In this document: positions 3,838 through 16,421 of the stretch, piece by piece
Layout of the letters: each line of letters begins with the position of its first letter
Position numbering within the stretch: the first letter of the stretch is position 1
Assembly (NCBI GenBank): GCA_045593065.1
Contig: JAZNVZ010000007.1
Coordinates: 12,071-76,070 of the forward strand
Reading direction: 5' to 3'
Length of the DNA stretch: 64,000 nucleotides
Origin: Candidatus Enterousia sp.
GTDB taxonomy: Bacteria > Pseudomonadota > Alphaproteobacteria > Rs-D84
The notes under the pieces: generated by a model
Told to the model about the DNA's origin: nothing
Seen by the model: only the letters and a program-made list of their open reading frames with translations
Databases searched by the model: none
Translations under genes and position numbers: made by a program

Positions 3838-3866
3838 TTGACTTGTGTTGCGATTTGTGATATAAT
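3838..3866 (+). promoter_or_regulatory. Near-consensus sigma70 promoter upstream of the phage-like cluster
   Basis: TTGACT-17 bp-TATAAT with extended -10 TG. Confidence 0.7.
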
Positions 3867-3932: not shown

Positions 3933-3958
3933 GGCGCACGATTTTGTGCGCTTTTTTT
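3933..3958 (+). terminator. Leader intrinsic terminator 2
   Basis: GCGCAC-GATTTT-GTGCGC followed by T7. Confidence 0.65.
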
Positions 3959-3985
3959 ATTTCTTACCACCAAGGGATACAAAAC

Positions 3986-4396
3986 ATGCAATTTAATTTG
4001 ATAAAACATCAAACCGGTTGGTCGCACGATGTTTATAAAATCGCCCATGTAATTTTTGCAGAAACATGCGCACAATCTCTGCGCGTGGTCGAAGCATTGG
4101 CATCGATGATTGCAAATGGCGCACGCGAATCACACCAAACAGAAATTGATTTCGTTATTAATTCTGGATTGTTTGAATCACTGGATAAAAAATCAAATCG
4201 GCATTATTTATTAAACACAAATGAAAATGCACGCGCGTTTCAAATGTGCCTGAGGGTGGTCGACAAAATGTTAAAACACAATTTGAACGATTCTTGTTTT
4301 GGCGCAACAAAATTCCACAGAACAGAATTTAATCCGTCTTGGTCAATCGCGCGCGGATATATTTTAGATATGGATGGATTGTTGTTCTATGCGTGA
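3986..4396 (+). CDS. Cell wall hydrolase (Hydrolase_2/SleB-like), divergent
   Basis: IA.VIFAE (catalytic Glu position), GATKFH, P.W and terminal LLFY; ATG 3986 after AAGGGA. Confidence 0.6.
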   Translation: MQFNLIKHQTGWSHDVYKIAHVIFAETCAQSLRVVEALASMIANGARESHQTEIDFVINSGLFESLDKKSNRHYLLNTNENARAFQMCLRVVDKMLKHNLNDSCFGATKFHRTEFNPSWSIARGYILDMDGLLFYA

Positions 4397-4414
4397 TAAA
4401 TAACGGATTTGAAA

Positions 4415-4657
4415 ATGAAAACACAAAAAATTATTCATGGCGGATATCTGGCTGGCCACAGAACATACATTTTATCAGGTGTTGGAATTTTATCAGCAAT
4501 CGCATCTTATTTGGTCGGCGATACAGATTTATTCATAACAATGCAATCAATATTTACTTTGGGTGGAATTTATTTCTTGCGCAAAGCAAACGATACAAAA
4601 AGGAGAAATTATGCAAAACATACCAGAAAAATTTCAAAACACAGACGGAACAGTTAA
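4415..4657 (+). CDS. Small membrane protein, holin-like
   Basis: About 80 aa, two hydrophobic segments after L.G.RTYI, basic C-terminal tail, adjacent to the hydrolase. Confidence 0.45.
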   Translation: MKTQKIIHGGYLAGHRTYILSGVGILSAIASYLVGDTDLFITMQSIFTLGGIYFLRKANDTKRRNYAKHTRKISKHRRNS

Positions 4658-5267
4658 TGTTGATGCGTTGATGAAATCTTATATGGAATTGGAAAAGAAA
4701 ATGGGCAGCATGATATCAGTGCCCACAAACACTGCGGATAAAAATGCACGCGAAAAATTTAATCGCGCGATTGGTGTGCCAGAAAACGCAAATGATTATC
4801 CATCAAATGATTTGTTTGATGACGAATCGGTTCGACAAAAATTTCATGACATAGGATTAACATCTGGTCAGGTTGAACAAATTTATTCTATTGCAGAAGA
4901 ATTTTTATCACCTGTACTTGCAGAATTATTTTCCAGTAAAAATGAAAATACCGAAATGTTAAAATTAGAAAAATTTTTTGGTTCGCGTGAAAAAATGACA
5001 GACGCATTAAATGCAATAAATACATTCGGTGAAAAATTTTTACCACATGATGCATTTGAATCATTATGCGCCAGCGCCAGCGGAATTCAAGGCGTGTATC
5101 AAATGATGCAATCGTTTGAACCGCATGTAAACACAACCAGCGACATAACAGAAAATTTAACCGATGCGGATTTGCGCCGCATGATGCGCGATCCAAAATA
5201 TTGGCGTGATAACGATCCAGAATATGTTCGCAAAATAGAAAATGGTTTTAAAAAATTATATGCTTGA
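4611..5267 (+). CDS. Capsid scaffolding/assembly protein (T7 gp9/BPP-1-like)
   Basis: IPEKF...G.VNVDAL.KSY.ELEKK N-terminus and MMRDPKYW...DP.YV.K...F..LY C-terminus; SD AGGAG. Confidence 0.8.
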   Translation: MQNIPEKFQNTDGTVNVDALMKSYMELEKKMGSMISVPTNTADKNAREKFNRAIGVPENANDYPSNDLFDDESVRQKFHDIGLTSGQVEQIYSIAEEFLSPVLAELFSSKNENTEMLKLEKFFGSREKMTDALNAINTFGEKFLPHDAFESLCASASGIQGVYQMMQSFEPHVNTTSDITENLTDADLRRMMRDPKYWRDNDPEYVRKIENGFKKLYA

Positions 5268-5372
5268 ATAAAATTTTTTTACTTTTTTCTTTACTATCAT
5301 TTTCTTTTATTATAAAATGTTATCAAGAACAAAAAAAGTTTGTTCTATCCAAAACACAAAAAGGAGAGAAGA

Positions 5373-5633
5373 ATGGCATTTTTATTCTCAGCAAAAAAAG
5401 CTGCAAAACCTGCTGCTAAACCTGCTGCAAAAAAAGTTGCTGCTAAACCAGCTGCAAAAAAACCGGCTGCAAAAAAACCAGCTGCTAAGAAAGTTGCTGC
5501 AAAAAAACCAGTCGCTAAAAAAGTAGTTGCAAAAAAACCAGCTGCTAAAAAAGTAGTTGCTAAAAAACCAGCTGCTAAAAAAGTTGCTGCTAAAAAACCA
5601 GCTGCTAAAAAATGCGCATGCAAAAAGAAATAA
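5373..5633 (+). CDS. Histone H1-like Lys/Ala/Pro-rich DNA-binding protein
   Basis: 86 aa made of PAAKK/VAAKK pentapeptide repeats; SD AAGGAG. Confidence 0.8.
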   Translation: MAFLFSAKKAAKPAAKPAAKKVAAKPAAKKPAAKKPAAKKVAAKKPVAKKVVAKKPAAKKVVAKKPAAKKVAAKKPAAKKCACKKK

Positions 5634-5656
5634 TTATTTCTGGACTGCAAAGATTT

Positions 5657-5682
5657 AACCCGCGAAAATTCGCGGGTTTTTC
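5657..5682 (+). terminator. Intrinsic terminator after the H1-like gene
   Basis: AACCCGCGAA-AA-TTCGCGGGTT plus T tract. Confidence 0.8.
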
Positions 5683-5817
5683 TTTACAATAATTTTAACC
5701 AGATAGTTTGTTGTCTGGTTAAAACTGTTGCAGGAAAATCTTATTTTGGACCCCGCATTTTGTTATATGACGCAATATTTATTGCATAATCAAAAAACAA
5801 AATATCAGTATATGGTC

Positions 5818-5844
5818 GGCGCAATTCGTTGCGTCTGTTTTTTT
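5818..5844 (+). terminator. Terminator-like hairpin immediately upstream of the capsid gene
   Basis: GGCGCAA-TTCG-TTGCGTC then TGTTTTTTT. Confidence 0.55.
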
Positions 5845-5865
5845 ATTTTAACAAAAGGAAAAATC

Positions 5866-6690
5866 ATGTCTGTTTCCATAGATCAAGTATTTGTGAAACA
5901 ATTTGAAGCAGATGTTCATTTGGCATATCAACAAATGGGCACAAAATTACGTTCCACTGTGCGCAGCAAATCTGGCGTTGTGGGACAATCTACAACATTT
6001 CAAACAATCGGGCGCGGCACAGCCAGCACGAAATCTCGGCACGGCATTGTTCCTGTTATGAATTTGAATCATCAACCCGTAGAATGCGTATTGCAAGATT
6101 ATTATGCTGGTGATTGGGTTGATGCATTGGATGAATTAAAAATCAATGTCGATGAACGCCGCGTGGTCGCATCTGCGGGCGCATACGCGTTGGGGCGCAA
6201 AACAGATGAATTAATTATATCTGCAATGGACAACGCCACTGCATACGCCGGTGATTTTACCACAGGTTTAACAAAAGCCCTGATTTTAGATGCCGTGGAA
6301 AAATTAAATGAAAAAGATGTCCCAGATGATGGTCGCAGATTTGCGGTTGTCGGCGTGCATCAATGGAACGAATTGTTAAATATTAATGAATTTGTGTCCG
6401 CAGATTATGTTGGCGATTCTAATCCGTTGGTTAACGGATACGAAGCCAAAAAATGGTTGGGCATAACATGGGTGTTGCATAATGATTTGCCGTTGGCCAG
6501 TTCTACTAACCGCAGTTGCTTTATCTATCACGCATCCAGCATCGGTCATGCGTGTGGACAAGAAGTCAAAACTGATATTACATGGCACGGCGAACGCGCG
6601 GCACACTTTATCAGCAACAGTATGTCTCAGGGTGCCGTATTAATCGACCAAGACGGCATAGTTCGTATCAAATGCAAAGATAACGCATAA
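5866..6690 (+). CDS. Major capsid protein, podovirus-type
   Basis: MS.SID..FVKQF...VH.A.QQ.G.KLR.TV, A.ALGRK.D..II and terminal GAV.ID..G.V motifs; SD AAAGGA; 274 aa. Confidence 0.88.
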   Translation: MSVSIDQVFVKQFEADVHLAYQQMGTKLRSTVRSKSGVVGQSTTFQTIGRGTASTKSRHGIVPVMNLNHQPVECVLQDYYAGDWVDALDELKINVDERRVVASAGAYALGRKTDELIISAMDNATAYAGDFTTGLTKALILDAVEKLNEKDVPDDGRRFAVVGVHQWNELLNINEFVSADYVGDSNPLVNGYEAKKWLGITWVLHNDLPLASSTNRSCFIYHASSIGHACGQEVKTDITWHGERAAHFISNSMSQGAVLIDQDGIVRIKCKDNA

Positions 6691-6721
6691 AAAATATTAC
6701 ACAACCAAAAGGAAACCTACG

Positions 6722-6952
6722 ATGGCATTTCAAAATAAAAATTTGTCTGTAATTGCATACGCAAATGGTTTTACTTTGTGGCATTATGCTGCAAATGAAA
6801 CAATGGCAACAATTTCCGAAAGTGGATATTTTAATAATGTTTTAACACTGATGAACACTGGCGATATTATTATTATCAACGCTTCTAATGGCACCGCCAT
6901 CAAAGCAATTACTGTGTCCAGCAGTGCTGTAACAGTAGCCGCATTATCATAA
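6722..6952 (+). CDS. Small phage-cluster protein (possible head decoration)
   Basis: LSV.AYANGFTLWHY...GYF.......GD.I; lies directly after the capsid gene. Confidence 0.5.
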   Translation: MAFQNKNLSVIAYANGFTLWHYAANETMATISESGYFNNVLTLMNTGDIIIINASNGTAIKAITVSSSAVTVAALS

Positions 6953-6970
6953 TTAAAGACATTTAAACAT

Positions 6971-7002
6971 GTGGGGTGATTCTGTGCACCCCACTTTATT
7001 TT
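6971..7002 (+). terminator. Intrinsic terminator after the capsid/decoration genes
   Basis: GTGGGGTG-ATTCTGTG-CACCCCAC plus TTTATTTT. Confidence 0.7.
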
Positions 7003-7024
7003 ATATAAACCAAAGGATATATAC

Positions 7025-7543
7025 ATGCCGAGTAAAATAGATTTGTGTTCTATGGCGTTATTAAAATTGGGCGAAAAACCCATTACTGATTTAAATAACG
7101 ACAGCGCATCTGCACAACTGGCCAATACATTATATGACACAACATTGGATGCGTTATTGTCTGCTTATCCATGGCGTTTTGCCACACAACACATTATTAT
7201 AGAAAAAAACCAAGATGGTGAATTTATCGTTCCAAAAAATGTATTACGCATATTACGATGTTCTGGGCGCGTATACGGAAATAAAATCGTATCAAATGAA
7301 AACAATGCAAAATTAGTCGCGGTTATGCGTATACCTGTTGAAGAATACCCCAGTTATTTCATATCATTGGCCGCCACAAAATTAGCAATGGAATTTTGTA
7401 TACCGTTAACCGGAAATCAACAGACACTGAGAATTTTAATCAGTTTATACGAATCCGAATTTCAAAATGCTAAATTTATAGATTCTACAACAAGTGCAAA
7501 TTCCAGCATAGAACAATTTTCTTTGATAAACGCACGTTTCTAA
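7025..7543 (+). CDS. Tail tubular protein A / adaptor (T7 gp11-like)
   Basis: IDLC..AL..LG..PI......S..A......YD...D.LL...PW.FA. Confidence 0.8.
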   Translation: MPSKIDLCSMALLKLGEKPITDLNNDSASAQLANTLYDTTLDALLSAYPWRFATQHIIIEKNQDGEFIVPKNVLRILRCSGRVYGNKIVSNENNAKLVAVMRIPVEEYPSYFISLAATKLAMEFCIPLTGNQQTLRILISLYESEFQNAKFIDSTTSANSSIEQFSLINARF

Positions 7544-7567
7544 TTTGAATACAAAAAGGTACAAATA

Positions 7568-9280
7568 ATGACAGAATTTATACATACACAAAATTCATTC
7601 GCAAACGGAGAAATTGCGCCCGAATTTTACCTGAACAAAAATATTAACGGGTTATCAAAATTAGAAAACATAGATGTTATGGATGGCGGCGGATTAACGC
7701 GCCGGCCAGGATTAGTTGATATTGCAACATTGACGGGGCCCGCCAGAATTTTTTCTTTTGATTTGTCTGACCAAGAACATTTCATTGTGGTGTTGACCAA
7801 TTATGCGTTAACAATTTATTCTAACAATTCTGCGATTTTTAATTGTATTGCACCATGGCCCACCGATGCAATGGGACAAATACAATTCGCAGCACGTGGC
7901 GATTCTATGATTTTTGTGCATCCCGATGTCAGTCCGTATGTGCTGGTTAAAACTAAAAACTCTTTCGCATTGAATAAATTTAGTTTTTATGACACAACTG
8001 GGACTATCCCGCAACAGCCCATGATGACATACGATGATATGAATGGTATTTCAATCAATGTATCTGGTGGGCCGTATGGTGTTAAATCTGCGACATTTAC
8101 AACAAATGCAGATTATTGGTCTGCAACAAATGTAGAAACAATTATTAAATTTAATGATCAAACCTGGAAAATTATCGAATTCGTTAGTAAAACTGTGGTC
8201 TATGCCGTCAGCACAACAGAATATACATTGCCGAACGCCCCAATCACTAGTTGGACTGAAAGCGCATTTGATAATCGTCATGGATGGCCTTGTGCAATTA
8301 CATTCCACCAAGATAGATTGATATTCGGTGGAACACATTATGTTCCTGGCGGAATTTGGATGTCGCGTGTTGGCGCACACAATAATTTTGATGTCGGTAC
8401 TGGATTAGATGACGAAGCGATTATTACAACATTATTATCCAAAGAACGTCAACAAATATGCAGTTTAATCAGCAGCGATACATTACAAGTTTTAACATCT
8501 TGTGGTGAATGGGCGATTGCAAATAAACCAATTACACCCGCCAGTATGAATATTATGCAACATACATCTGTCGGCAGCGCAACCGCACATTGTTTAATCC
8601 CCCAAAAAATCGAGGGCGAAACAGTGTTTGTATCTAATACCATGACAGAAATTAGAAAACTGTCGTTGGATACATTGGGCGAAAAGTACAATGCAGACGA
8701 TTTGTGTGCTTTTTCCAAACACTTGATAAATCAACCTGTGGATATCGCATATAATAAAGCATTAAAAAAATTGTATTTGGTAAACAATGATGGAACCATG
8801 GCGGTATTAAAACAAAACAGTGTTTTAGGAATTTCTGCGTGGGCAAAGTATTTAACATACGGAAAATTCACATCTGTGGCCGTCAGTGCCAATGAAACAT
8901 TTGTCGTATTAAAAATAAACAATATATACAAATTATCAAAATTTTCTGACGCAGCCACCAATGATTCAGGAACCTATAACATAGATTTTTGCGTATCTGG
9001 GGTGCCATTAAGTTTTTCTGGACACAGACCTGCGCATCTAAAAATACACAAAATCAATTTGCGTTTATTTGAAACAAAAAGTGTGTTTATAAACAATATG
9101 CGCGTGTCGTTACCAAATGAAATTTATTCCCCCGCCAGTCCCGGATTTTCAGGAGATATCACAATGAATATGCTGGGGTCGCAAATAGACACCGCAACAT
9201 CGCCATGGACAATCCACGGCAATGACCCGATGCCAATCACAGTGTTTTCTGTATCACTATATGGACAATATGAAATTTAA
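7568..9280 (+). CDS. Tail tubular protein B / nozzle (T7 gp12-like)
   Basis: Q.SF..GEI.P, GG..RRPG, GWP..ITFHQDRL.FGG, W.SR.G...NF..GT..DD. Confidence 0.82.
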   Translation: MTEFIHTQNSFANGEIAPEFYLNKNINGLSKLENIDVMDGGGLTRRPGLVDIATLTGPARIFSFDLSDQEHFIVVLTNYALTIYSNNSAIFNCIAPWPTDAMGQIQFAARGDSMIFVHPDVSPYVLVKTKNSFALNKFSFYDTTGTIPQQPMMTYDDMNGISINVSGGPYGVKSATFTTNADYWSATNVETIIKFNDQTWKIIEFVSKTVVYAVSTTEYTLPNAPITSWTESAFDNRHGWPCAITFHQDRLIFGGTHYVPGGIWMSRVGAHNNFDVGTGLDDEAIITTLLSKERQQICSLISSDTLQVLTSCGEWAIANKPITPASMNIMQHTSVGSATAHCLIPQKIEGETVFVSNTMTEIRKLSLDTLGEKYNADDLCAFSKHLINQPVDIAYNKALKKLYLVNNDGTMAVLKQNSVLGISAWAKYLTYGKFTSVAVSANETFVVLKINNIYKLSKFSDAATNDSGTYNIDFCVSGVPLSFSGHRPAHLKIHKINLRLFETKSVFINNMRVSLPNEIYSPASPGFSGDITMNMLGSQIDTATSPWTIHGNDPMPITVFSVSLYGQYEI

Positions 9281-9304
9281 CAATATAAACCAAAGGAGGT
9301 ATTT

Positions 9305-9652
9305 ATGGGACAATTAGTATCAGATGTAACAAATGTATTGAATGCACAAAATTCAAAACGTGCAGCAAATAATAAACGGCAAGAAATTTTACAACAAATT
9401 GCCAAAGATGAACAAACAAAAACCAACCTGATAAAAAAAGCATTGGCCACACAACGGGCAAATTATGGCGCAGGCGGCACAAATTCCGCCAGCACCAGTG
9501 CCGGCGCAGTATTACAGCGTCTGCGCAATGAAACCGCCGCCCCATATGACGATAAAAAAGAGCAAAATATCAAAAAAATTAAAAACATTACTGTGAAAAA
9601 AAATAATTTGTTAAAGAATTTACTGGCCAGATTAGACAATATCGTTGGATAA
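9305..9652 (+). CDS. Putative internal virion/ejection protein
   Basis: Gln/Ala-rich helical protein with ALA.QRA.YGA.G.....S motif, located after the nozzle gene. Confidence 0.5.
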   Translation: MGQLVSDVTNVLNAQNSKRAANNKRQEILQQIAKDEQTKTNLIKKALATQRANYGAGGTNSASTSAGAVLQRLRNETAAPYDDKKEQNIKKIKNITVKKNNLLKNLLARLDNIVG

Positions 9653-9655
9653 AAA

Positions 9656-10258
9656 ATGATTACGCAAATACACCAATTTGCAAATGATTGGAATCGTATT
9701 TTGGGGTACAACACGCCACGCCATCACCAAGATATGCTGGATTTTTTATACAATGTATGGCAATCACCGCCCCATCGCGGATTATTAATGGCTTTTCGGC
9801 ATTCAGGTAAATCTACCGTTGTTGGTATTTTTGCCGCATGTGTTTTATATTTACGGCCTGAAACACGAATACTGGTATTATCTGCACACACGACATTGGC
9901 TGCACGAATGGTTGCACATATAAAAAACATTTTGGAAAACCACCCAATGTGTTGCGATTTAATTCCTAAATCAAAAAAAGAATGGGCTGGCGATAAAATA
10001 ACAATCAACAGACCTATTGGTATTCGCGAACCGTCTGTGATATGTCAAGGAATCCACGGAAACATTACAGGAATGCGCGCAGATTTAATAATTTGTGATG
10101 ATGTCGAGGTTCCTAATACCGCAAACACACCACAAAAACGCGCCGCATTACGAGAAAGATTGCGCGAATTAGATTTTATCTTGTCGCCATCTGGCACAAT
10201 TATATATATCGGCACCCCACACGCCGTGGACACAATATACAGAACCCAAGAAGATTGA
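9656..10258 (+). CDS. Large terminase, N-terminal ATPase domain only
   Basis: Walker A AFRHSGKST, G.ITG.RAD, Walker B LIICDDVE, coupling motif YIGTPH; stops nine residues after GTPH. Confidence 0.88.
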   Translation: MITQIHQFANDWNRILGYNTPRHHQDMLDFLYNVWQSPPHRGLLMAFRHSGKSTVVGIFAACVLYLRPETRILVLSAHTTLAARMVAHIKNILENHPMCCDLIPKSKKEWAGDKITINRPIGIREPSVICQGIHGNITGMRADLIICDDVEVPNTANTPQKRAALRERLRELDFILSPSGTIIYIGTPHAVDTIYRTQED

Positions 10259-10260
10259 TT

Positions 10261-10917
10261 TTATTCTGCGTTATCAGGATGAGATTTTTGCTTGATGAGT
10301 GTACGCAATTTGGTTAACAACTGATTCCCAGCATCCGCGAACATCGGCAAAAATGTTTCATATTCTGGCATATCGGCTTGAATCTGTGCCAGGACGCGTT
10401 CGGTTAATGGTTTATTAATAATTTGACTGGCCGTGTCCCACACATGATATGCGCGCCATGTTTGCATAACAATACGCCATTTTGCCAACATATCTGGATA
10501 ATCAGTCAACATTGTTTTGATTCCAACCAACCATTCATCGCCAAATTTTTTTATAACATCCAATTTTTGCAGTTTTTGCAAACCTTGTTGATTGGGGGTG
10601 AATTCACGCAATGCGTTTCGTAATTGCGTCCATTGTTTGTCCGTCAATGGTGTTGTCATCGCAGATTCTGTCATTAATCCGCCATACGGCAACAAATTTC
10701 GGTCGATTGAATTCATCGGGGTTTTTCCACTGCGCAAATTCAAAATATGTTGAACCAAGAGTTTTCCTGTGGGCAATTCCGCCATTTTATCCAGGACATC
10801 ATCGGTTGCCTCGTTAACAAATATTGGGTTTAATGCCGCCCAACCGCCCAGAATTACGTGTTCTTGACGATACAGGTTTACCAATTTTTGTGCAACTAAA
10901 TTTGCTTTTGGTTTCAT
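10261..10917 (-). CDS. Hypothetical protein
   Basis: 218-aa ORF with SD GGAGAG, downstream of the XRE gene in the same orientation. Confidence 0.75.
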   Translation of the reverse strand: MKPKANLVAQKLVNLYRQEHVILGGWAALNPIFVNEATDDVLDKMAELPTGKLLVQHILNLRSGKTPMNSIDRNLLPYGGLMTESAMTTPLTDKQWTQLRNALREFTPNQQGLQKLQKLDVIKKFGDEWLVGIKTMLTDYPDMLAKWRIVMQTWRAYHVWDTASQIINKPLTERVLAQIQADMPEYETFLPMFADAGNQLLTKLRTLIKQKSHPDNAE

Positions 10918-10938
10918 ATTCTCTCTCCGTTAATAATA

Positions 10939-11946
10939 TTATTCGGTTAGAATTAAAACGACACGATGCATGGTTTTTGCATAAATTTTTTCCTGGGGGT
11001 TAAGAATCGCGCCATACAAATTACCCTTGGCATCAGCGCGCACAGTCGCAATTTGTGCACTGACAACATCGTCTGGGTTTAAAGATGAAAAATCAGCATC
11101 CAGACACAATGCCAAATCGCCCACCCCAGCAGGTTGAGACGCATCAACAAAAACATACGATTTTTCAGGAATAAAACCGCCCGTACGTTTTGAAACAGGC
11201 ATAACCGCATAAATTGATTTGCGCCCTTCAAGTGATGCAGGTGCCACAATCATAATTTTATCGTTTTTCTTGAATGCGATTGCACCACCATTTTGTGTAC
11301 CAAACACAGGCACCAATTTTCTGCGCGCACTGTCATACAATTTGGCACCGTATACACCATCGTGCATATCAATACCAGATACAGGACTGTCCGGAACCAA
11401 TACAGATTTCACGCGTTCTTTGACCTTGTTGATTTGTGTATTTAATTCGCCAGATTTATATAATGTCGCAATTTTGTCGAACATTTTTTCCGCCGTCATC
11501 GCAAAAGATTTGGCCAATGGCGCAACCTCGTTCTGGTAAATTTCACGTTGACCGATTTCTATTTTATGGTATACGGACAATGTCATTCCGGCATCCTTGG
11601 CCGCTTGGGCGATTGTTTTGCCCTGTAATTGGCGGATTTTGCGCAACCCAGAACCGAACACCTTTAACCCACCATGTTCGTTGTCATTCAGGCGGCGTTT
11701 AATTTCGCTTTGCCATTTGTCGGCAACCGCATCAGATTCCTTGATGAATATATCAGATAATTTGCAACCTAAAATATTGCAAATATTCAATAATTGTTTT
11801 TGGTTCAAACGGCGAACGCCCTTTTCGATTTTGGACACCGCAGATAAACTGAGTCCTGTTTTACGGGCCAATTCGGTCATTTTCATACCGTTGTTCAAAC
11901 GAATTGTTCTAATGTTATTAGGAAATATGATTTCTTCTTGCGCCAT
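10939..11946 (-). CDS. Tandem XRE/HTH transcriptional regulator with possible degenerate S24-like C-terminal domain
   Basis: Two HTH_3 units (IRTIR...ELARKTGLSLSAVSKIEKG; LRKIR...AAKDAGMTLSVYHKIEIG); LVPVFG...YAV C-terminal beta region; SD AAGGAG. Confidence 0.8.
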   Translation of the reverse strand: MAQEEIIFPNNIRTIRLNNGMKMTELARKTGLSLSAVSKIEKGVRRLNQKQLLNICNILGCKLSDIFIKESDAVADKWQSEIKRRLNDNEHGGLKVFGSGLRKIRQLQGKTIAQAAKDAGMTLSVYHKIEIGQREIYQNEVAPLAKSFAMTAEKMFDKIATLYKSGELNTQINKVKERVKSVLVPDSPVSGIDMHDGVYGAKLYDSARRKLVPVFGTQNGGAIAFKKNDKIMIVAPASLEGRKSIYAVMPVSKRTGGFIPEKSYVFVDASQPAGVGDLALCLDADFSSLNPDDVVSAQIATVRADAKGNLYGAILNPQEKIYAKTMHRVVLILTE

Positions 11947-12027
11947 TTATTCAACTCCTTGCAGGTACTTGACAAAAGTTTAGTCAATTTTTGAATAATT
12001 GGCAAGTAAAAATTTGTCAAAAAATAA

Positions 12028-13596
12028 TTATACAGGCATATCGTCAGGTATTGCAGATATATCAACACCAGTTTCTGGGGCCCCAACAGGATGTGATTCC
12101 ATGGGTTGTGCCACCCCACCAAATTCACCAGGCAACGGCGCATCTGCACGATTTGCCGCGTCATCCAGATTATCAAACAGGCAATAATCATTTAAAAACG
12201 CCAAATGGACAGTTTCTGGACGGCCATGACGATTTTTACCAATAATAACATCGGCCTTGCCACGCGCGCGTTCCAAACGTTTTTGCCATGTTTCAACACT
12301 GGTTTGTGAAACGGTATTAGACATACGTTGCGATGGGTTGCGATCGTTCAAATAATATTCTTCGCGATATGTGAACATGACAATATCGGCATCTTGTTCA
12401 ATAGACCCTGATTCACGCAAATCCGCCAACTGGGGGCGTTTGTCATCACGCATTTCAACACTGCGCGATAATTGAGACAACGCAATAACCGGCACATCCA
12501 ATTCTTTGGCCAACATTTTTAATCCGCGGGTAATTTCAGACAATTCTTGCACACGATTGTCATTGCGTTTCCCGCCAGGCGACATCATTAATTGCAAATA
12601 ATCGATAACAATCAATGCAATGCCACCATATTTCCGTGCCAACCGGCGTGCGCGCGTACGAATCATCGGTACAGACATGCCCGCAGTGTCGTCAATTACC
12701 AATGGTGCTTGAGAAATCGCCTTGGCGTATTGGGTCATTTTCAGGAAATCTTCGTCCGACAAACTTTTGCCTTCGCGCATATATGTCGCAGGTATTTTTG
12801 TTTGTGATGATAAAATACGCGTTGCCAGTTGCGACACAGACATTTCTAGTGAAAAAAATGCAACGACACCACGATAACGTTTGTTTGCCCGACCTGATAA
12901 AATAGCATTTGCTGCGTTAAATGCGATATTCATCGCCAATGTTGTTTTACCCATCGCAGGACGGCCAGCAATAATTATCAAATCAGAATGATGTAAACCG
13001 CTGAGTGATTTATCCAACGCCGTCAACCCAGTTGTCAACCCAGACAATGAACCATCTGCCTGGTATGCGATTTGCACTTCTTCCAGTGCACTCTGTAATG
13101 CGTTGGCAATGGGTGTTGGTTCGTGTTCCGCAACCCCGGTTGATGCCATATCAAACAATTTCTGTTCGGCGATTTCCAGTTGCCGTGCCACAGGTTTATC
13201 CAGGTTTTCGACATACGCATCATCAACAATCGATTGCCCCAATGCAATTAATTGTCGGCGCATGGCGTTTTCATAAACGATTCGCCCATATTGTTCAACA
13301 TTTACAACCGTTGCGCCAGCCGCAGATAATTCTGTCAAATAATCAATACCGCCAACCGAATCAAGGATGCCCTGCTGTTGCAGATAATCTTTGACAGTAA
13401 TGATGTCAAACGGCACGCCAGATGCAAACCGATGCAATGCCAGTTTATAAATTTCTTGATGGGCCGGATGCGAAAAATGTTCCGGTTTTAGAAAATCCGA
13501 TACCTGTTCCAAGGCGCGATTACTCATCAACGCGGCAGCCAGAACGGCTTGTTCGGCTTCTAGATTCATTGGTAAAGTTTTGGGAGTAAAGTCCAT
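12028..13596 (-). CDS. dnaB: Replicative DNA helicase
   Basis: P.N.EAEQ, AGRPAMGKT, FFSLEMS, IDYLQL, LSQLSR, DLRESGSIEQDAD, KNRHG; full length, alphaproteobacterial type. Confidence 0.97.
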   Translation of the reverse strand: MDFTPKTLPMNLEAEQAVLAAALMSNRALEQVSDFLKPEHFSHPAHQEIYKLALHRFASGVPFDIITVKDYLQQQGILDSVGGIDYLTELSAAGATVVNVEQYGRIVYENAMRRQLIALGQSIVDDAYVENLDKPVARQLEIAEQKLFDMASTGVAEHEPTPIANALQSALEEVQIAYQADGSLSGLTTGLTALDKSLSGLHHSDLIIIAGRPAMGKTTLAMNIAFNAANAILSGRANKRYRGVVAFFSLEMSVSQLATRILSSQTKIPATYMREGKSLSDEDFLKMTQYAKAISQAPLVIDDTAGMSVPMIRTRARRLARKYGGIALIVIDYLQLMMSPGGKRNDNRVQELSEITRGLKMLAKELDVPVIALSQLSRSVEMRDDKRPQLADLRESGSIEQDADIVMFTYREEYYLNDRNPSQRMSNTVSQTSVETWQKRLERARGKADVIIGKNRHGRPETVHLAFLNDYCLFDNLDDAANRADAPLPGEFGGVAQPMESHPVGAPETGVDISAIPDDMPV

Positions 13597-14443
13597 GTCA
13601 ATTATAGTAAATCAAAAAATTCATTTTTCAACGCCTTTTTTAACTGGATACGAAAAATTTGTTTTGCCAATCCAAAAACCAGACGGAACCGCCGTTTGGC
13701 CAGAAATGTTTCCACCAGATAAAATCGCAGATATGCGCGCATCAGTCGGCGAACACCACTTTATGGCGCAAATGATGTTGGAATTCACACCAATGGAGCG
13801 TGTGCGTTTAGACCCAGGAATGATTAAATTTTACAACGCAGAATTTAATCCACACACAGCAAAAATCAACGATTGGTCCGTTACAGGCGCATCTGTGTAT
13901 TGGGACCCATCGTTGGGACATAAAAATACAGATGCCAGTGTGTGCGCACTGGTTTTTCGTGATGATAAATTACACAACATATTTTTGCATGACATAATCT
14001 ATATGACTGTGCCACGCGAACACCCGCAACCATTAACATACCAATGTGATGTAGTGTTAGATTTTTTGAACAAATACAAATTGCACAGATTATCAGTCGA
14101 AACAAATGGATTAGGAAACGCATTGCCAGAAATACTGGGCGATAAAATCGCAAAACTGGGCGGTGGCATTGTTGTCCAGCGCATTACGAATAACACAAAA
14201 AAAGAATCGCGAATCATGGGCGCATTAGAACCACTGTTGGGCTCTGGCCGAATATTTGCACACGAACGCATAAAACAAACCCCATTCTTGGCAGAAATGA
14301 TTGGTTGGTCGCCTATTGGTGGCATCGGTCATGACGATGGATTGGATGCAGTCAGTGGCGCAATAAACACAATTCCTGTGCCAATTCGACCATTGGGTAC
14401 AACCGTTCGCCCAATTTCAGCAAACACAAATTTCATAATATAA
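13595..14443 (+). CDS. Large terminase, C-terminal RNase H-like nuclease domain
   Basis: WPE.F, F.AQMML, YWDPSLG, D.SV, VETNG.G, K..RI, HDDGLDAV; own SD GGGAG at 13582-13586. Confidence 0.85.
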   Translation: MSIIVNQKIHFSTPFLTGYEKFVLPIQKPDGTAVWPEMFPPDKIADMRASVGEHHFMAQMMLEFTPMERVRLDPGMIKFYNAEFNPHTAKINDWSVTGASVYWDPSLGHKNTDASVCALVFRDDKLHNIFLHDIIYMTVPREHPQPLTYQCDVVLDFLNKYKLHRLSVETNGLGNALPEILGDKIAKLGGGIVVQRITNNTKKESRIMGALEPLLGSGRIFAHERIKQTPFLAEMIGWSPIGGIGHDDGLDAVSGAINTIPVPIRPLGTTVRPISANTNFII

Positions 14444-14459
14444 CCAAAGGAGATAATTT

Positions 14460-15683
14460 ATGAACATCAAAAAAATACAACAAATGTATAACAACGCATT
14501 AAAAATACGCGAACCATGGATGCAAAAATGGGACGATGCACGCAGATATACTATCCCCACAACAAACACAGAATCTGCTACTTTGTTTGATGGTACGGCG
14601 GCTGATGCAGTTGATAATTTAGCTGCATCAATTTATACATTATTAACACCACCTGAATCATTATGGATAAACCTGGTGCGCGAAAGCGACATGTCCCCAA
14701 ATCCAGATATCGCAACCGCGGTACTGCGTGCAAATTTGAATGATTCTAATTTTTATACCACCGTGCATCAAGCGTATCTGGATTTGTGTATATACGGCAC
14801 TGCGTGTTTGTTCATGGCTGAAAACCCGATTGGTGCAGATTCTGCGTTTTCATTTACTGCAATTCCGTTAACAGATATTGCAATATTGAATAACGCAATA
14901 TTCCACACAACAACCATGACCGCAACCGAAGTCGTTGGCGCATATCCAACATGGACACCAACCCCAGATGTGCGCAAAAAAATGCAGGCAGACCCGAATA
15001 CACCACTGCGTTTGGTTCAAGCATTGATTGGTTTAGATTTTGTCGCATGGTTGGATGTGGGGGGCGATATCGAAAACAATATTGTTGCAACCGGTACATT
15101 TGAAACAAACCCGTATTTAATATTCCGTTGGTCATTAATCAGCGGCGAATTATATGGACGCAGTCCGGTGTTGCGCGCCCTGCCCGATATAAAAACCGCA
15201 AACAAAGTCGTGGAATTGGTTTTGAAAAACGCAACTATCGCGGTCAGTGGTATTTGGCAAGCAGATGATGATGGCGTAATAAATCTGCAAAATATAAATT
15301 TAACCCCAGGCGCAATTATCCCAAAGGCCGTGGGCAGTTCTGGGTTAACACCCTTGTCCAGTGGCGCAAATTTTGATGTATCGCAACTGATACTGAATGA
15401 TTTGCGCGACAGAATTCGCCATACATTGTTGGCAGACAGATTGACCATGATTGCAGAACGCGATATGACCGCGACCGAGGTTTTGGCACGCAATGCCGAT
15501 ATGATGCGCGTATTGGGCGCAACATACGGACGATTGTTGCATGAATTTATACGGCCACTGTGCGAACGCGGTTTACAAATCTTGTCGCGCCGCGGTGTCA
15601 TAGAACCCATATCACTGCACAGCGATGCAGAATTAAAATATCTGGCACCAATCGCCACAGCAACCAAAGAAACTGTTTTATAA
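14460..15683 (+). CDS. Portal / head-tail connector (T7 gp8/BPP-1 Bbp21-like)
   Basis: LFD.TA..A...LAA.....LTPP...W, P....RW....GE.YGRSP...ALPDIK, MTATEV..R; SD AAGGAG; 407 aa. Confidence 0.9.
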   Translation: MNIKKIQQMYNNALKIREPWMQKWDDARRYTIPTTNTESATLFDGTAADAVDNLAASIYTLLTPPESLWINLVRESDMSPNPDIATAVLRANLNDSNFYTTVHQAYLDLCIYGTACLFMAENPIGADSAFSFTAIPLTDIAILNNAIFHTTTMTATEVVGAYPTWTPTPDVRKKMQADPNTPLRLVQALIGLDFVAWLDVGGDIENNIVATGTFETNPYLIFRWSLISGELYGRSPVLRALPDIKTANKVVELVLKNATIAVSGIWQADDDGVINLQNINLTPGAIIPKAVGSSGLTPLSSGANFDVSQLILNDLRDRIRHTLLADRLTMIAERDMTATEVLARNADMMRVLGATYGRLLHEFIRPLCERGLQILSRRGVIEPISLHSDAELKYLAPIATATKETVL

Positions 15684-15697
15684 AAAAGGATACCAAC

Positions 15698-15895
15698 ATG
15701 CAAGAAATCGAAAAACAATATGCACGCGCATTTCAAACACCCGCAGGACGCGCCGTATTGCAACATTTACGACATATAACGATTGAACGAGTATTGGGGC
15801 CAAATGCAACAGATAACGAATTAAGATGGGCTGAATCTGGGCGCGCCATGGTTCGTCAAATTGAATCAATGATTGCGCGCGGAACAAAAGGGTAA
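15698..15895 (+). CDS. Bbp19-like small phage protein
   Basis: Y.R.F.TP.G..VL.HL...EG.R..V..I-like pattern directly after the portal; SD AAAGGA. Confidence 0.7.
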   Translation: MQEIEKQYARAFQTPAGRAVLQHLRHITIERVLGPNATDNELRWAESGRAMVRQIESMIARGTKG

Positions 15896-15900
15896 TAAAA

Positions 15901-16158
15901 ATGCCAAAGAAACAAAACATAACAAATATAATAGATACATTACGCACAGGGTGGGTATTATTGGCGGCGGTGTTCGGTATAGTATATTGGATTGCCCGCC
16001 AAGATTCATCTCTCACTGAATTAGAACGCGCAGAAACACGCATTACCGCATTAGAAAACCGGACAACAATACTGGAAAGCGGTATTGGACAATTACAAAT
16101 GAAAATTGACGGAATCAAAGAAGATGTAACATTGATAAAATCCGCGGTGATTAAATAA
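15901..16158 (+). CDS. Membrane-anchored coiled-coil protein (XhlA/holin-like)
   Basis: One transmembrane segment followed by a heptad region RITALE....LE. Confidence 0.5.
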   Translation: MPKKQNITNIIDTLRTGWVLLAAVFGIVYWIARQDSSLTELERAETRITALENRTTILESGIGQLQMKIDGIKEDVTLIKSAVIK

Positions 16159-16394: not shown

Positions 16395-16421
16395 AAAAAA
16401 ACGGGCGTTTGCCCGTTTTTT
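16395..16421. terminator. Bidirectional intrinsic terminator
   Basis: AAAAAAACGGGC-GTTT-GCCCGTTTTTT. Confidence 0.8.

Follow-up and report, generated by a model that had tools for sequence, protein, structure and literature searches.

How can a phage DNA-packaging motor be kept in a bacterial chromosome when its gene lies in two pieces, 3.3 kb apart, with the replicative helicase gene of the host between them? The question is raised by 64,000 nucleotides of Candidatus Enterousia sp. DNA (assembly GCA_045593065.1, contig JAZNVZ010000007.1, positions 12,071 to 76,070 of the forward strand; this whole stretch is referred to as the window). There, a large terminase (TerL) of the phage T7 type is encoded by two plus-strand open reading frames (ORFs), TerL-N and TerL-C, and three host genes occupy the opposite strand between them (Table 1). 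The host, a gut alphaproteobacterium, has a genome of 849,724 bp in 7 contigs that is 96.8% complete. Enterousia is placed within the uncultured order Rs-D84, all of whose genomes are reduced according to the paper describing them (PMC12306168). Judging from the conservation of the locus, we think it fairly probable that both halves are functional genes whose two products come together as a single large terminase of the T7 type, within a domesticated cluster resembling a gene transfer agent (GTA).

Family matches identify TerL-N and TerL-C as two parts of one T7-type large terminase, and both ORFs lie as the original prediction described them: the ATPase half ends at 10258, just past the coupling motif, and a separate ORF beginning at 13595 behind a GGGAG ribosome-binding motif is followed by the portal gene. 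TerL-N matches positions 287-459 of phrog_38 (E 5.6e-43) and positions 4-191 of NF033889, termin_lrg_T7 (228 bits against a cut-off of 150), and aligns with residues 32-215 of the 586-amino-acid (aa) terminase chain of PhiV-1 (8dgc_E). TerL-C matches positions 482-710 of phrog_38 (E 1e-37) and 230-500 of NF033889. With the TerL-C sequence alone, phmmer returned no solved relative; the fold search did find relatives, pairing the nuclease fold with terminase nuclease domains at Z 14-17 (Foldseek E 4.4e-12). A TTG at 13580 is an alternative TerL-C start that would give 287 aa, and the ATG at 13595 is the one with GGGAG in front. Together the halves come to 482-487 aa, compared with 470-510 aa for intact homologues, and alignment to those homologues reveals no conserved block lost at the junction. 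The expectation of about 480 aa, with catalytic motifs retained and nothing missing, was thus borne out. The locus combines ATPase motifs of the ASCE (additional strand, catalytic glutamate) class, an RNase H-like nuclease and a portal, capsid and scaffold of the same type alongside (PF12236, PF19821, PF05396); what it lacks of the T7 type is the placement of ATPase and nuclease on one polypeptide of ~470-590 aa.

The break falls at the same point in all 17 loci compared, the N chain ending after GTPHxxxTIY and the C chain starting before PFLxGYxxLxIP. Intact homologues, which are 50-56% identical to TerL-N, have only a variable loop of 0-10 residues at this position. Residues 64-276 of the TerL-C model (predicted local distance difference test, pLDDT, 82.8) match residues 294-539 of the PhiV-1 terminase (Z 17.1), and the isolated terminase nuclease domains of P22, Sf6, G20c and RB49/T4 align from TerL-C residues 65-70 onward; the nuclease domain begins at about residue 64-70. 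Because the nuclease alignment starts at residue 64, the first ~63 residues of TerL-C correspond to single-chain residues ~216-293, which belong to the ATPase domain. The break therefore interrupts the ATPase fold itself, with ~65-80 residues still to come before the nuclease domain, and does not fall in an interdomain linker, where it had first been placed.

Modeling of the pair, a check proposed at the outset, gave an N plus C complex with an ipSAE (interaction prediction score from aligned errors) of 0.82, compared with 0.00 for the best of 3 controls; this mark is attained by 116 of 157 solved complexes and by 2 of 215 mismatched pairs. Three runs of the complex model share at least 97% of contacts, with a partner pLDDT of at least 79. 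In the predicted complex, C residues 19-26 add a strand alongside N residues 41-47, which make up the strand running into Walker A. As modeled, the halves fit together as in an intact terminase, a result that speaks to fit and not to binding itself. If the model is right, the N half would not be an independent motor, because the C half supplies a strand of the ATPase core and the lid. We envisage that the chains reassemble by fragment complementation: the N chain would contribute the ATPase core as far as the C-motif and the C chain the core strand that follows, together with the lid and the complete nuclease, and each chain alone should be inactive. The suggestion that the split allows cutting and translocation to be regulated separately, and could in that way favour sequence-independent packaging, finds no support, and the modeled fold argues against an uncoupling of the two.

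Both halves retain their catalytic residues and show purifying selection. Among 48 TerL-N sequences from several families, R48, G51-K52-S53, D148-D149, E151 and G186-T187-P188 are invariant (the SGKS, ICDDVE and GTP motifs), as are W103-D104-P105, E169, N171-G172, D247-D248 and D251 among 45 TerL-C sequences, likewise from several families (WDP, ETNG and DDGLD). Median ratios of nonsynonymous to synonymous substitution rates (dN/dS; pairwise Nei-Gojobori, pairs with dS of 0.05-1.5) are 0.112 for TerL-N and 0.179 for TerL-C, values that are rough because dS is ~1.3, near saturation, and that come from genomes that are kin and not independent samples. The halves thus do not look like decaying genes, one of the outcomes that the original prediction had asked about. 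Comparison values are 0.128 for the capsid gene and 0.184 for the host gene lipB; those of the portal gene and the three intervening genes are given in Table 1. An apparent internal stop in 2 of 80 TerL-N matches was rejected, the natural stop merely falling one or two residues earlier. For the claim of a functional two-subunit terminase, intact ORFs across the order, invariant motifs, purifying selection and a model that passes its controls all stand; as regards activity, the claim would be an extrapolation from them.

The distribution of the split was followed through 24 same-genus and 16 other Rs-D84 genomes for TerL-N and through 121 Rs-D84 genomes for TerL-C. A TerL-N frame of 185-240 aa is present in all 24 genomes of the genus and in 12 of the 16 others; of the remaining four, one has a weak match to an unrelated 603-aa frame and three have no match. 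TerL-C occurs in 110 of the 121 genomes, in open frames of ~270 to 412 aa at most, none of them fused to N. The closest related loci, 80 from other metagenome-assembled genomes (MAGs) of animal guts, all belong to the genus, and all 80 have, as far as their contigs reach, the order tail B, the short ORF 5' of TerL-N, TerL-N, an opposite-strand block of the ORF of no known family, a helix-turn-helix (HTH) gene and dnaB, then TerL-C and portal; the whole cluster is visible in 53. In a wider, evenly drawn set of 401 alphaproteobacterial genomes, 60 match the terminase at E <= 1e-10. Among these 60, 4 Rs-D84 genomes have frames of 201-211 aa and all others have frames of at least 399 aa except one (G225), whose apparent split was rejected since it is caused by a stretch of masked bases. 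In all 10 loci fetched from outside the order the N match runs directly into the C match, and most of these loci have the gene order portal, Bbp19-like, scaffold, capsid, tail A and tail B, then 1-4 kb of other genes, then TerL and lysozyme.

These loci also date the block between the halves. The presence of three reverse-strand genes there, dnaB among them, is as originally described, and this dnaB is the only one of the host: DnaB_C has a single match in the whole 850-kb genome. The protein is of host type by NCBIfam (NF006606, 590.8 bits against a cut-off of 540), phage_DnaB falling below its own cut-off. All 5 genomes examined from other families have an orthologue of the HTH regulator (36-41% identity) that is not linked to the cluster, and in the same five genomes dnaB and the HTH orthologue lie far from one another and from the phage cluster. 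The halves are nevertheless separate ORFs in these other families, with no dnaB between them; they are adjacent, across a gap of 175-380 nt, in L023, L027, L029, L030 and L031, and enclose ftsZ and the portal gene in L025 and L032. Because the split is present in families without dnaB between the halves, it is older than the dnaB insertion, and the initial view that the dnaB-containing block split the gene does not hold. By the loci compared, the split goes back to a single event no later than the origin of the sampled Rs-D84 families, in whose common ancestor the terminase would already have been in two pieces; the dnaB block is a later, Enterousia-specific insertion into a pre-existing gap, into which the three host genes (an ORF of no known family, an HTH regulator and dnaB) would have moved. 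Conservation in relatives, another check named beforehand, thus gave an order-wide split and a dnaB insertion confined to Enterousia.

The TerL-C ATG overlaps the dnaB ATG of the opposite strand inside the palindrome CATG, at the same offset in all 66 genus loci where both matches begin at residue 1, and a gap of 2 nt separates the stop codon of TerL-N from that of the 218-aa ORF converging on it. dnaB and TerL-C are divergent with overlapping starts and no intergenic DNA. The nearest promoter-like sites, which are consensus matches only, are found at 13631-13604 (minus strand; 8 nt lie between its end and the dnaB ATG) and at 13301-13330 (plus strand, inside dnaB); each sits within the coding sequence of the opposite gene.

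The halves belong to a plus-strand T7-like cluster of ~12 kb (3944-16158) that comprises lysozyme-like, scaffold, capsid, tail tube A and B, terminase and portal genes. Host genes flank it, ackA and lipB on one side and an FKBP gene, a lipoprotein gene, a VirB11-like ATPase gene and priA on the other. Family searches between lipB and the FKBP gene recognized no integrase, replication or lysogeny genes, and several small ORFs there are without annotation. Gene order is scrambled between families with the ORFs retained, and host genes are interleaved with the cluster, dnaB in Enterousia and ftsZ in other families. lipB flanks the cluster throughout the genus, and L030 has a weak lipB-like match, of 28% identity, after the portal gene. 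Near-universal presence and the lipB flank suggest that the cluster is a fixed, vertically inherited phage-like element of Rs-D84. It would most likely be a domesticated GTA-like particle system, rather than a prophage. Matches in IMG/VR are records of 4-14 kb with the same TerL-N; judged by their lengths they are provirus-style cut-outs of the cluster and not evidence of free virions. A bolder extension, which we regard as doubtful, is that Rs-D84 maintains a T7-derived GTA with an obligate two-chain terminase motor and that, with the only dnaB (Enterousia) or the only ftsZ (other families) embedded in the cluster, particle production is transcriptionally entangled with replication or division.

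Several observations weigh against a two-chain terminase serving a DNA-delivering particle. No TerL-C match was obtained in 11 of the 121 Rs-D84 genomes. In one of another family (G029, family f6, 99% complete) a motif-intact TerL-N is followed by the portal gene and TerL-C is undetected even with a profile, so TerL-N is able to persist without a detectable partner. Deletions in one of the 80 genus loci (L097) have taken out tail A, tail B and portal as well as part of both the capsid gene and TerL-C. In the window, no gene was recognized for a small terminase, a tail fibre or an internal core protein. The complex model may have passed through likeness to solved single-chain terminases (8dgc, 4bij) rather than binding, because single-chain relatives are solved, and the selection estimates carry the saturation and kinship already mentioned. 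Some of these points would suit co-option, with both halves under selection without jointly forming a terminase, and TerL-N acting, for example, as a stand-alone ATPase partner of the portal: TerL-N directly precedes the portal gene in the genome that has no detectable TerL-C, gene order is scrambled in several families, and the small terminase is not recognized. We nonetheless find co-option unlikely, since the modeled N half is without the Walker A-adjacent strand and the lid, both supplied by C, the C nuclease triad is invariant across families, and N and C co-occur in nearly all Rs-D84 genomes along with capsid, scaffold, tail tube and portal.

A decaying prophage, its two ORFs being pseudogene fragments, could account for an interrupted gene, for the deletions in one of the 80 loci and for the many phage genes lacking from the cluster. 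It is quite improbable, because across an order with protein identities of only ~50% the frames are intact, the motifs do not vary and dN/dS stays at 0.11-0.18; patchy distribution, frame decay and relaxed selection, the marks of prophage remnants, were not found for the halves. The genome also holds an internal control, a second, unrelated and intact terminase large subunit of 482 aa outside the window (G000:C5:158000-177000, locus L033), with genes for a DUF5681 protein, a ParB-like methylase, a serine recombinase, a LexA/S24-like repressor and an ADP-ribosylglycohydrolase as neighbours. It is present in just 12 of 41 relatives, several times as fragments, and because it is patchy and often fragmentary it looks like ordinary prophage debris or a mobile prophage or island. 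A true prophage terminase in the same genomes is thus patchy and fragmented where the split halves are not. The parts might instead be rejoined by intron or intein splicing, by recoding or by excision of the 3.3-kb block, and split terL genes of other phages are restored through group I intron splicing (PMC12880540). For Enterousia we judge this highly improbable. Rfam gave no match at E <= 1 in positions 9000-15000 of the window, and only tRNAs at the gathering score in L023, L027, L029, L030 and L031; positions 9300-14800 contain only short imperfect repeats, with nothing notable where the block begins and ends; none of the contig joints deletes the block, and the short skips among them have sides of fewer than 30 letters. 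Moreover, the block consists of three conserved host genes read from the other strand, the combined length of the halves is that of a complete terminase with no excess of the size of an intein, TerL-N terminates at a stop codon of its own, and TerL-C begins at an ATG with its own Shine-Dalgarno sequence. Although the genome is a 7-contig assembly, the chance of an artefact is negligible: the same order recurs in 80 of 80 loci of other MAGs and the same start overlap in 66 of 66, and one contig of run X1, which may be the source sample, spans 9300-14600 unbroken. Misassembly is excluded.

Table 1. Features of the T7-like cluster and intervening host genes (window positions), followed by hairpin sites 3' of TerL-N in related loci (positions within each locus)
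Feature	Position	Strand	Evidence and remarks
Lysozyme/endolysin-like ORF, 150 aa, first gene of cluster	3944..4396	+	weak phrog_938 endolysin match, E 1.1e-6; syntenic in relatives
T7-type capsid assembly (scaffold) protein	4563..5267	+	PF05396, E 9.4e-10
Major capsid protein	5728..6690	+	PF19821, E 6e-74, and phrog_3437; 65-71% identity between families of the order
Tail tubular protein A-like	7025..7543	+	phrog_394, E 2.3e-33
Tail tubular protein B-like	7568..9280	+	phrog_376, E 4.4e-78
115-aa ORF immediately 5' of TerL-N	9305..9652	+	no family match; kept in genus; dN/dS 0.23
TerL-N, ATPase core with Walker A, Walker B and C-motif, 200 aa	9656..10258	+	phrog_38, PF03237, NF033889
218-aa ORF, last gene of block	10261..10917	-	no Pfam, PHROG or NCBIfam match, no usable Atlas match; kept in genus; dN/dS 0.212
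Host transcription regulator, two XRE-type HTH domains, 335 aa	10939..11946	-	PF01381 in 2 stretches; dN/dS 0.082
Host replicative helicase DnaB	12028..13596	-	PF03796 and PF00772; dN/dS 0.059
TerL-C, last ATPase strand and lid, RNase H-like nuclease, 282 aa	13595..14443	+	phrog_38, PF22530, NF033889
Portal (head-to-tail connector)	14460..15683	+	PF12236, E 7.2e-81; dN/dS 0.073
Bbp19-like small phage protein	15560..15895	+	PF25181, E 5.1e-8; ORF overlaps portal end, true start uncertain
85-aa conserved ORF, last gene of cluster	15901..16158	+	weak phrog_736 match; syntenic in relatives
Hairpin region, L023	8252-8398	-	
Hairpin region, L027	8779-8908	-	
Hairpin region, L029	9263-9365	-	
Hairpin region, L030	8990-9149	+	
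Hairpin region, L031	9186-9327	+	
Hairpins, L025	8654-8703 and 9219-9275	+	
Hairpins, L028	8113-8169 and 8521-8572		
Hairpins, L032	8163-8219 and 8552-8603	-	

The cluster is bounded by candidate expression signals, a promoter-like site (score 11/12) at 3838-3866, before the lysozyme-like ORF, and a terminator-like hairpin at 16396-16421, downstream of the 85-aa ORF. Within it, strong terminator-like hairpins follow the scaffold gene (5657-5678) and the capsid gene (6971-6994), and could allow a higher dose of both proteins relative to those of downstream genes. The 115-aa ORF showed no similarity to a T7-fibre-like ORF that occupies the same place in locus L025.

Eight loci of the order from outside Enterousia have one or two unusual hairpins just 3' of TerL-N, each with a stem of 10-17 bp, a pyrimidine-rich loop of 22-30 nt and a U-run. 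A near-consensus TTGACA promoter-like site precedes the hairpins in the five gaps examined (L023, L027, L029, L030 and L031). Two of the loop sequences (18 and 20 nt) recur unchanged in families that share ~50% protein identity, and hold CCUCCUUA-like anti-Shine-Dalgarno motifs. The hairpins come from single folds; RNAalifold on a MAFFT alignment with one misaligned row paired nothing. They look like a conserved small RNA or leader at the split site. Rfam has no match for them, and the loop motifs (allowing up to 3 substitutions) were not found in the Enterousia genome itself, in 86 Enterousia loci or in 10 loci outside the order.

In other genera the only ftsZ of the host lies inside or next to the cluster (L025:10139-11821 on the plus strand; L028, L032, L027 and L031; TIGR00065, 355.7 bits). 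The three genus g3 loci all place it between TerL-N and portal; in L027 it separates TerL-C from portal. Because ftsZ is nested in this way in other genera, an essential host gene within the cluster is a recurring state and not specific to dnaB. The FtsZ/tubulin family PF00091 had no match in 2 of 2 Enterousia genomes (G000 and G020, 96-97% complete) and one match each in 3 other-family genomes, and tblastn with the FtsZ of a relative found nothing in G000. Enterousia may divide without FtsZ.

The terminase also has relatives well beyond Rs-D84. About 15% of the sampled alphaproteobacterial genomes (the 60 of 401 above) hold a homologue, at 42-56% identity and mostly as one close copy, and 9 of the 10 loci from outside the order (L123-L132) carry capsid (53-61% identical) and tail genes as well. 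In L123 a MacB efflux operon borders the cluster on one side and lnt with a LexA-like gene on the other. There may be a small T7-like element that spans the class.

Large terminases rank with the most powerful molecular motors, and work on them has treated them as single chains. A natural terminase maintained as two chains over a long evolutionary span, and divided after the C-motif strand and before the strand of the core that follows, would offer a ready-made system, expressible heterologously, for studying how ATP hydrolysis is coupled to the lid and nuclease. A literature search of incomplete coverage turned up neither a terminase maintained as two polypeptides nor a phage-like cluster in Rs-D84, and the words 'phage', 'terminase', 'capsid' and 'gene transfer agent' are absent from the main text of the Rs-D84 genome paper (PMC12306168). 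Like the halves described here, terL of Jug (jumbo gut) phages consists of two or three ORF fragments; unlike them, the Jug fragments are co-transcribed and rejoined by group I intron splicing (PMC12880540), no sign of which was detected at the Enterousia locus, where opposite-strand host genes lie between the halves.

In ATPase motifs, RNase H-like nuclease and T7-type neighbours the pair resembles the T7-type terminase (gp19 family; NF033889; PhiV-1 8dgc chain E; T7 threading models 4bij and 4bil). Unlike the 586-aa single chain of PhiV-1, however, it consists of two polypeptides broken inside the ATPase fold and together ~100 aa shorter, and unlike its counterparts in phage genomes, the Rs-D84 terminase is chromosomal and, as its distribution suggests, vertically inherited. 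Intact alphaproteobacterial terminases (Azospirillum, Roseospira and Roseicella among others) share the same neighbours, namely portal, Bbp19-like, scaffold, capsid, tail A and B and lysozyme genes, but are single reading frames whose portal gene is upstream of scaffold and not after TerL; the sole annotated locus of this kind, L123, is also a small cluster, of ~11 kb, with no integrase seen. The packaging ATPase gp16 of phi29 has no covalently attached nuclease, and phi29 has no nuclease partner at all, whereas here the nuclease is retained and carries part of the ATPase fold. GTAs such as RcGTA of Rhodobacter and BaGTA of Bartonella are phage-derived clusters fixed in a lineage, devoid of replication and integration genes and under purifying selection. 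Compared with these, the Rs-D84 cluster is a T7-like podovirus module with a split terminase. It points to a T7-like phage-derived particle system, as opposed to the siphovirus-like GTAs known from alphaproteobacteria, in partner-dependent gut bacteria with genomes below 1 Mb, for which DNA exchange could matter in escaping genome decay.

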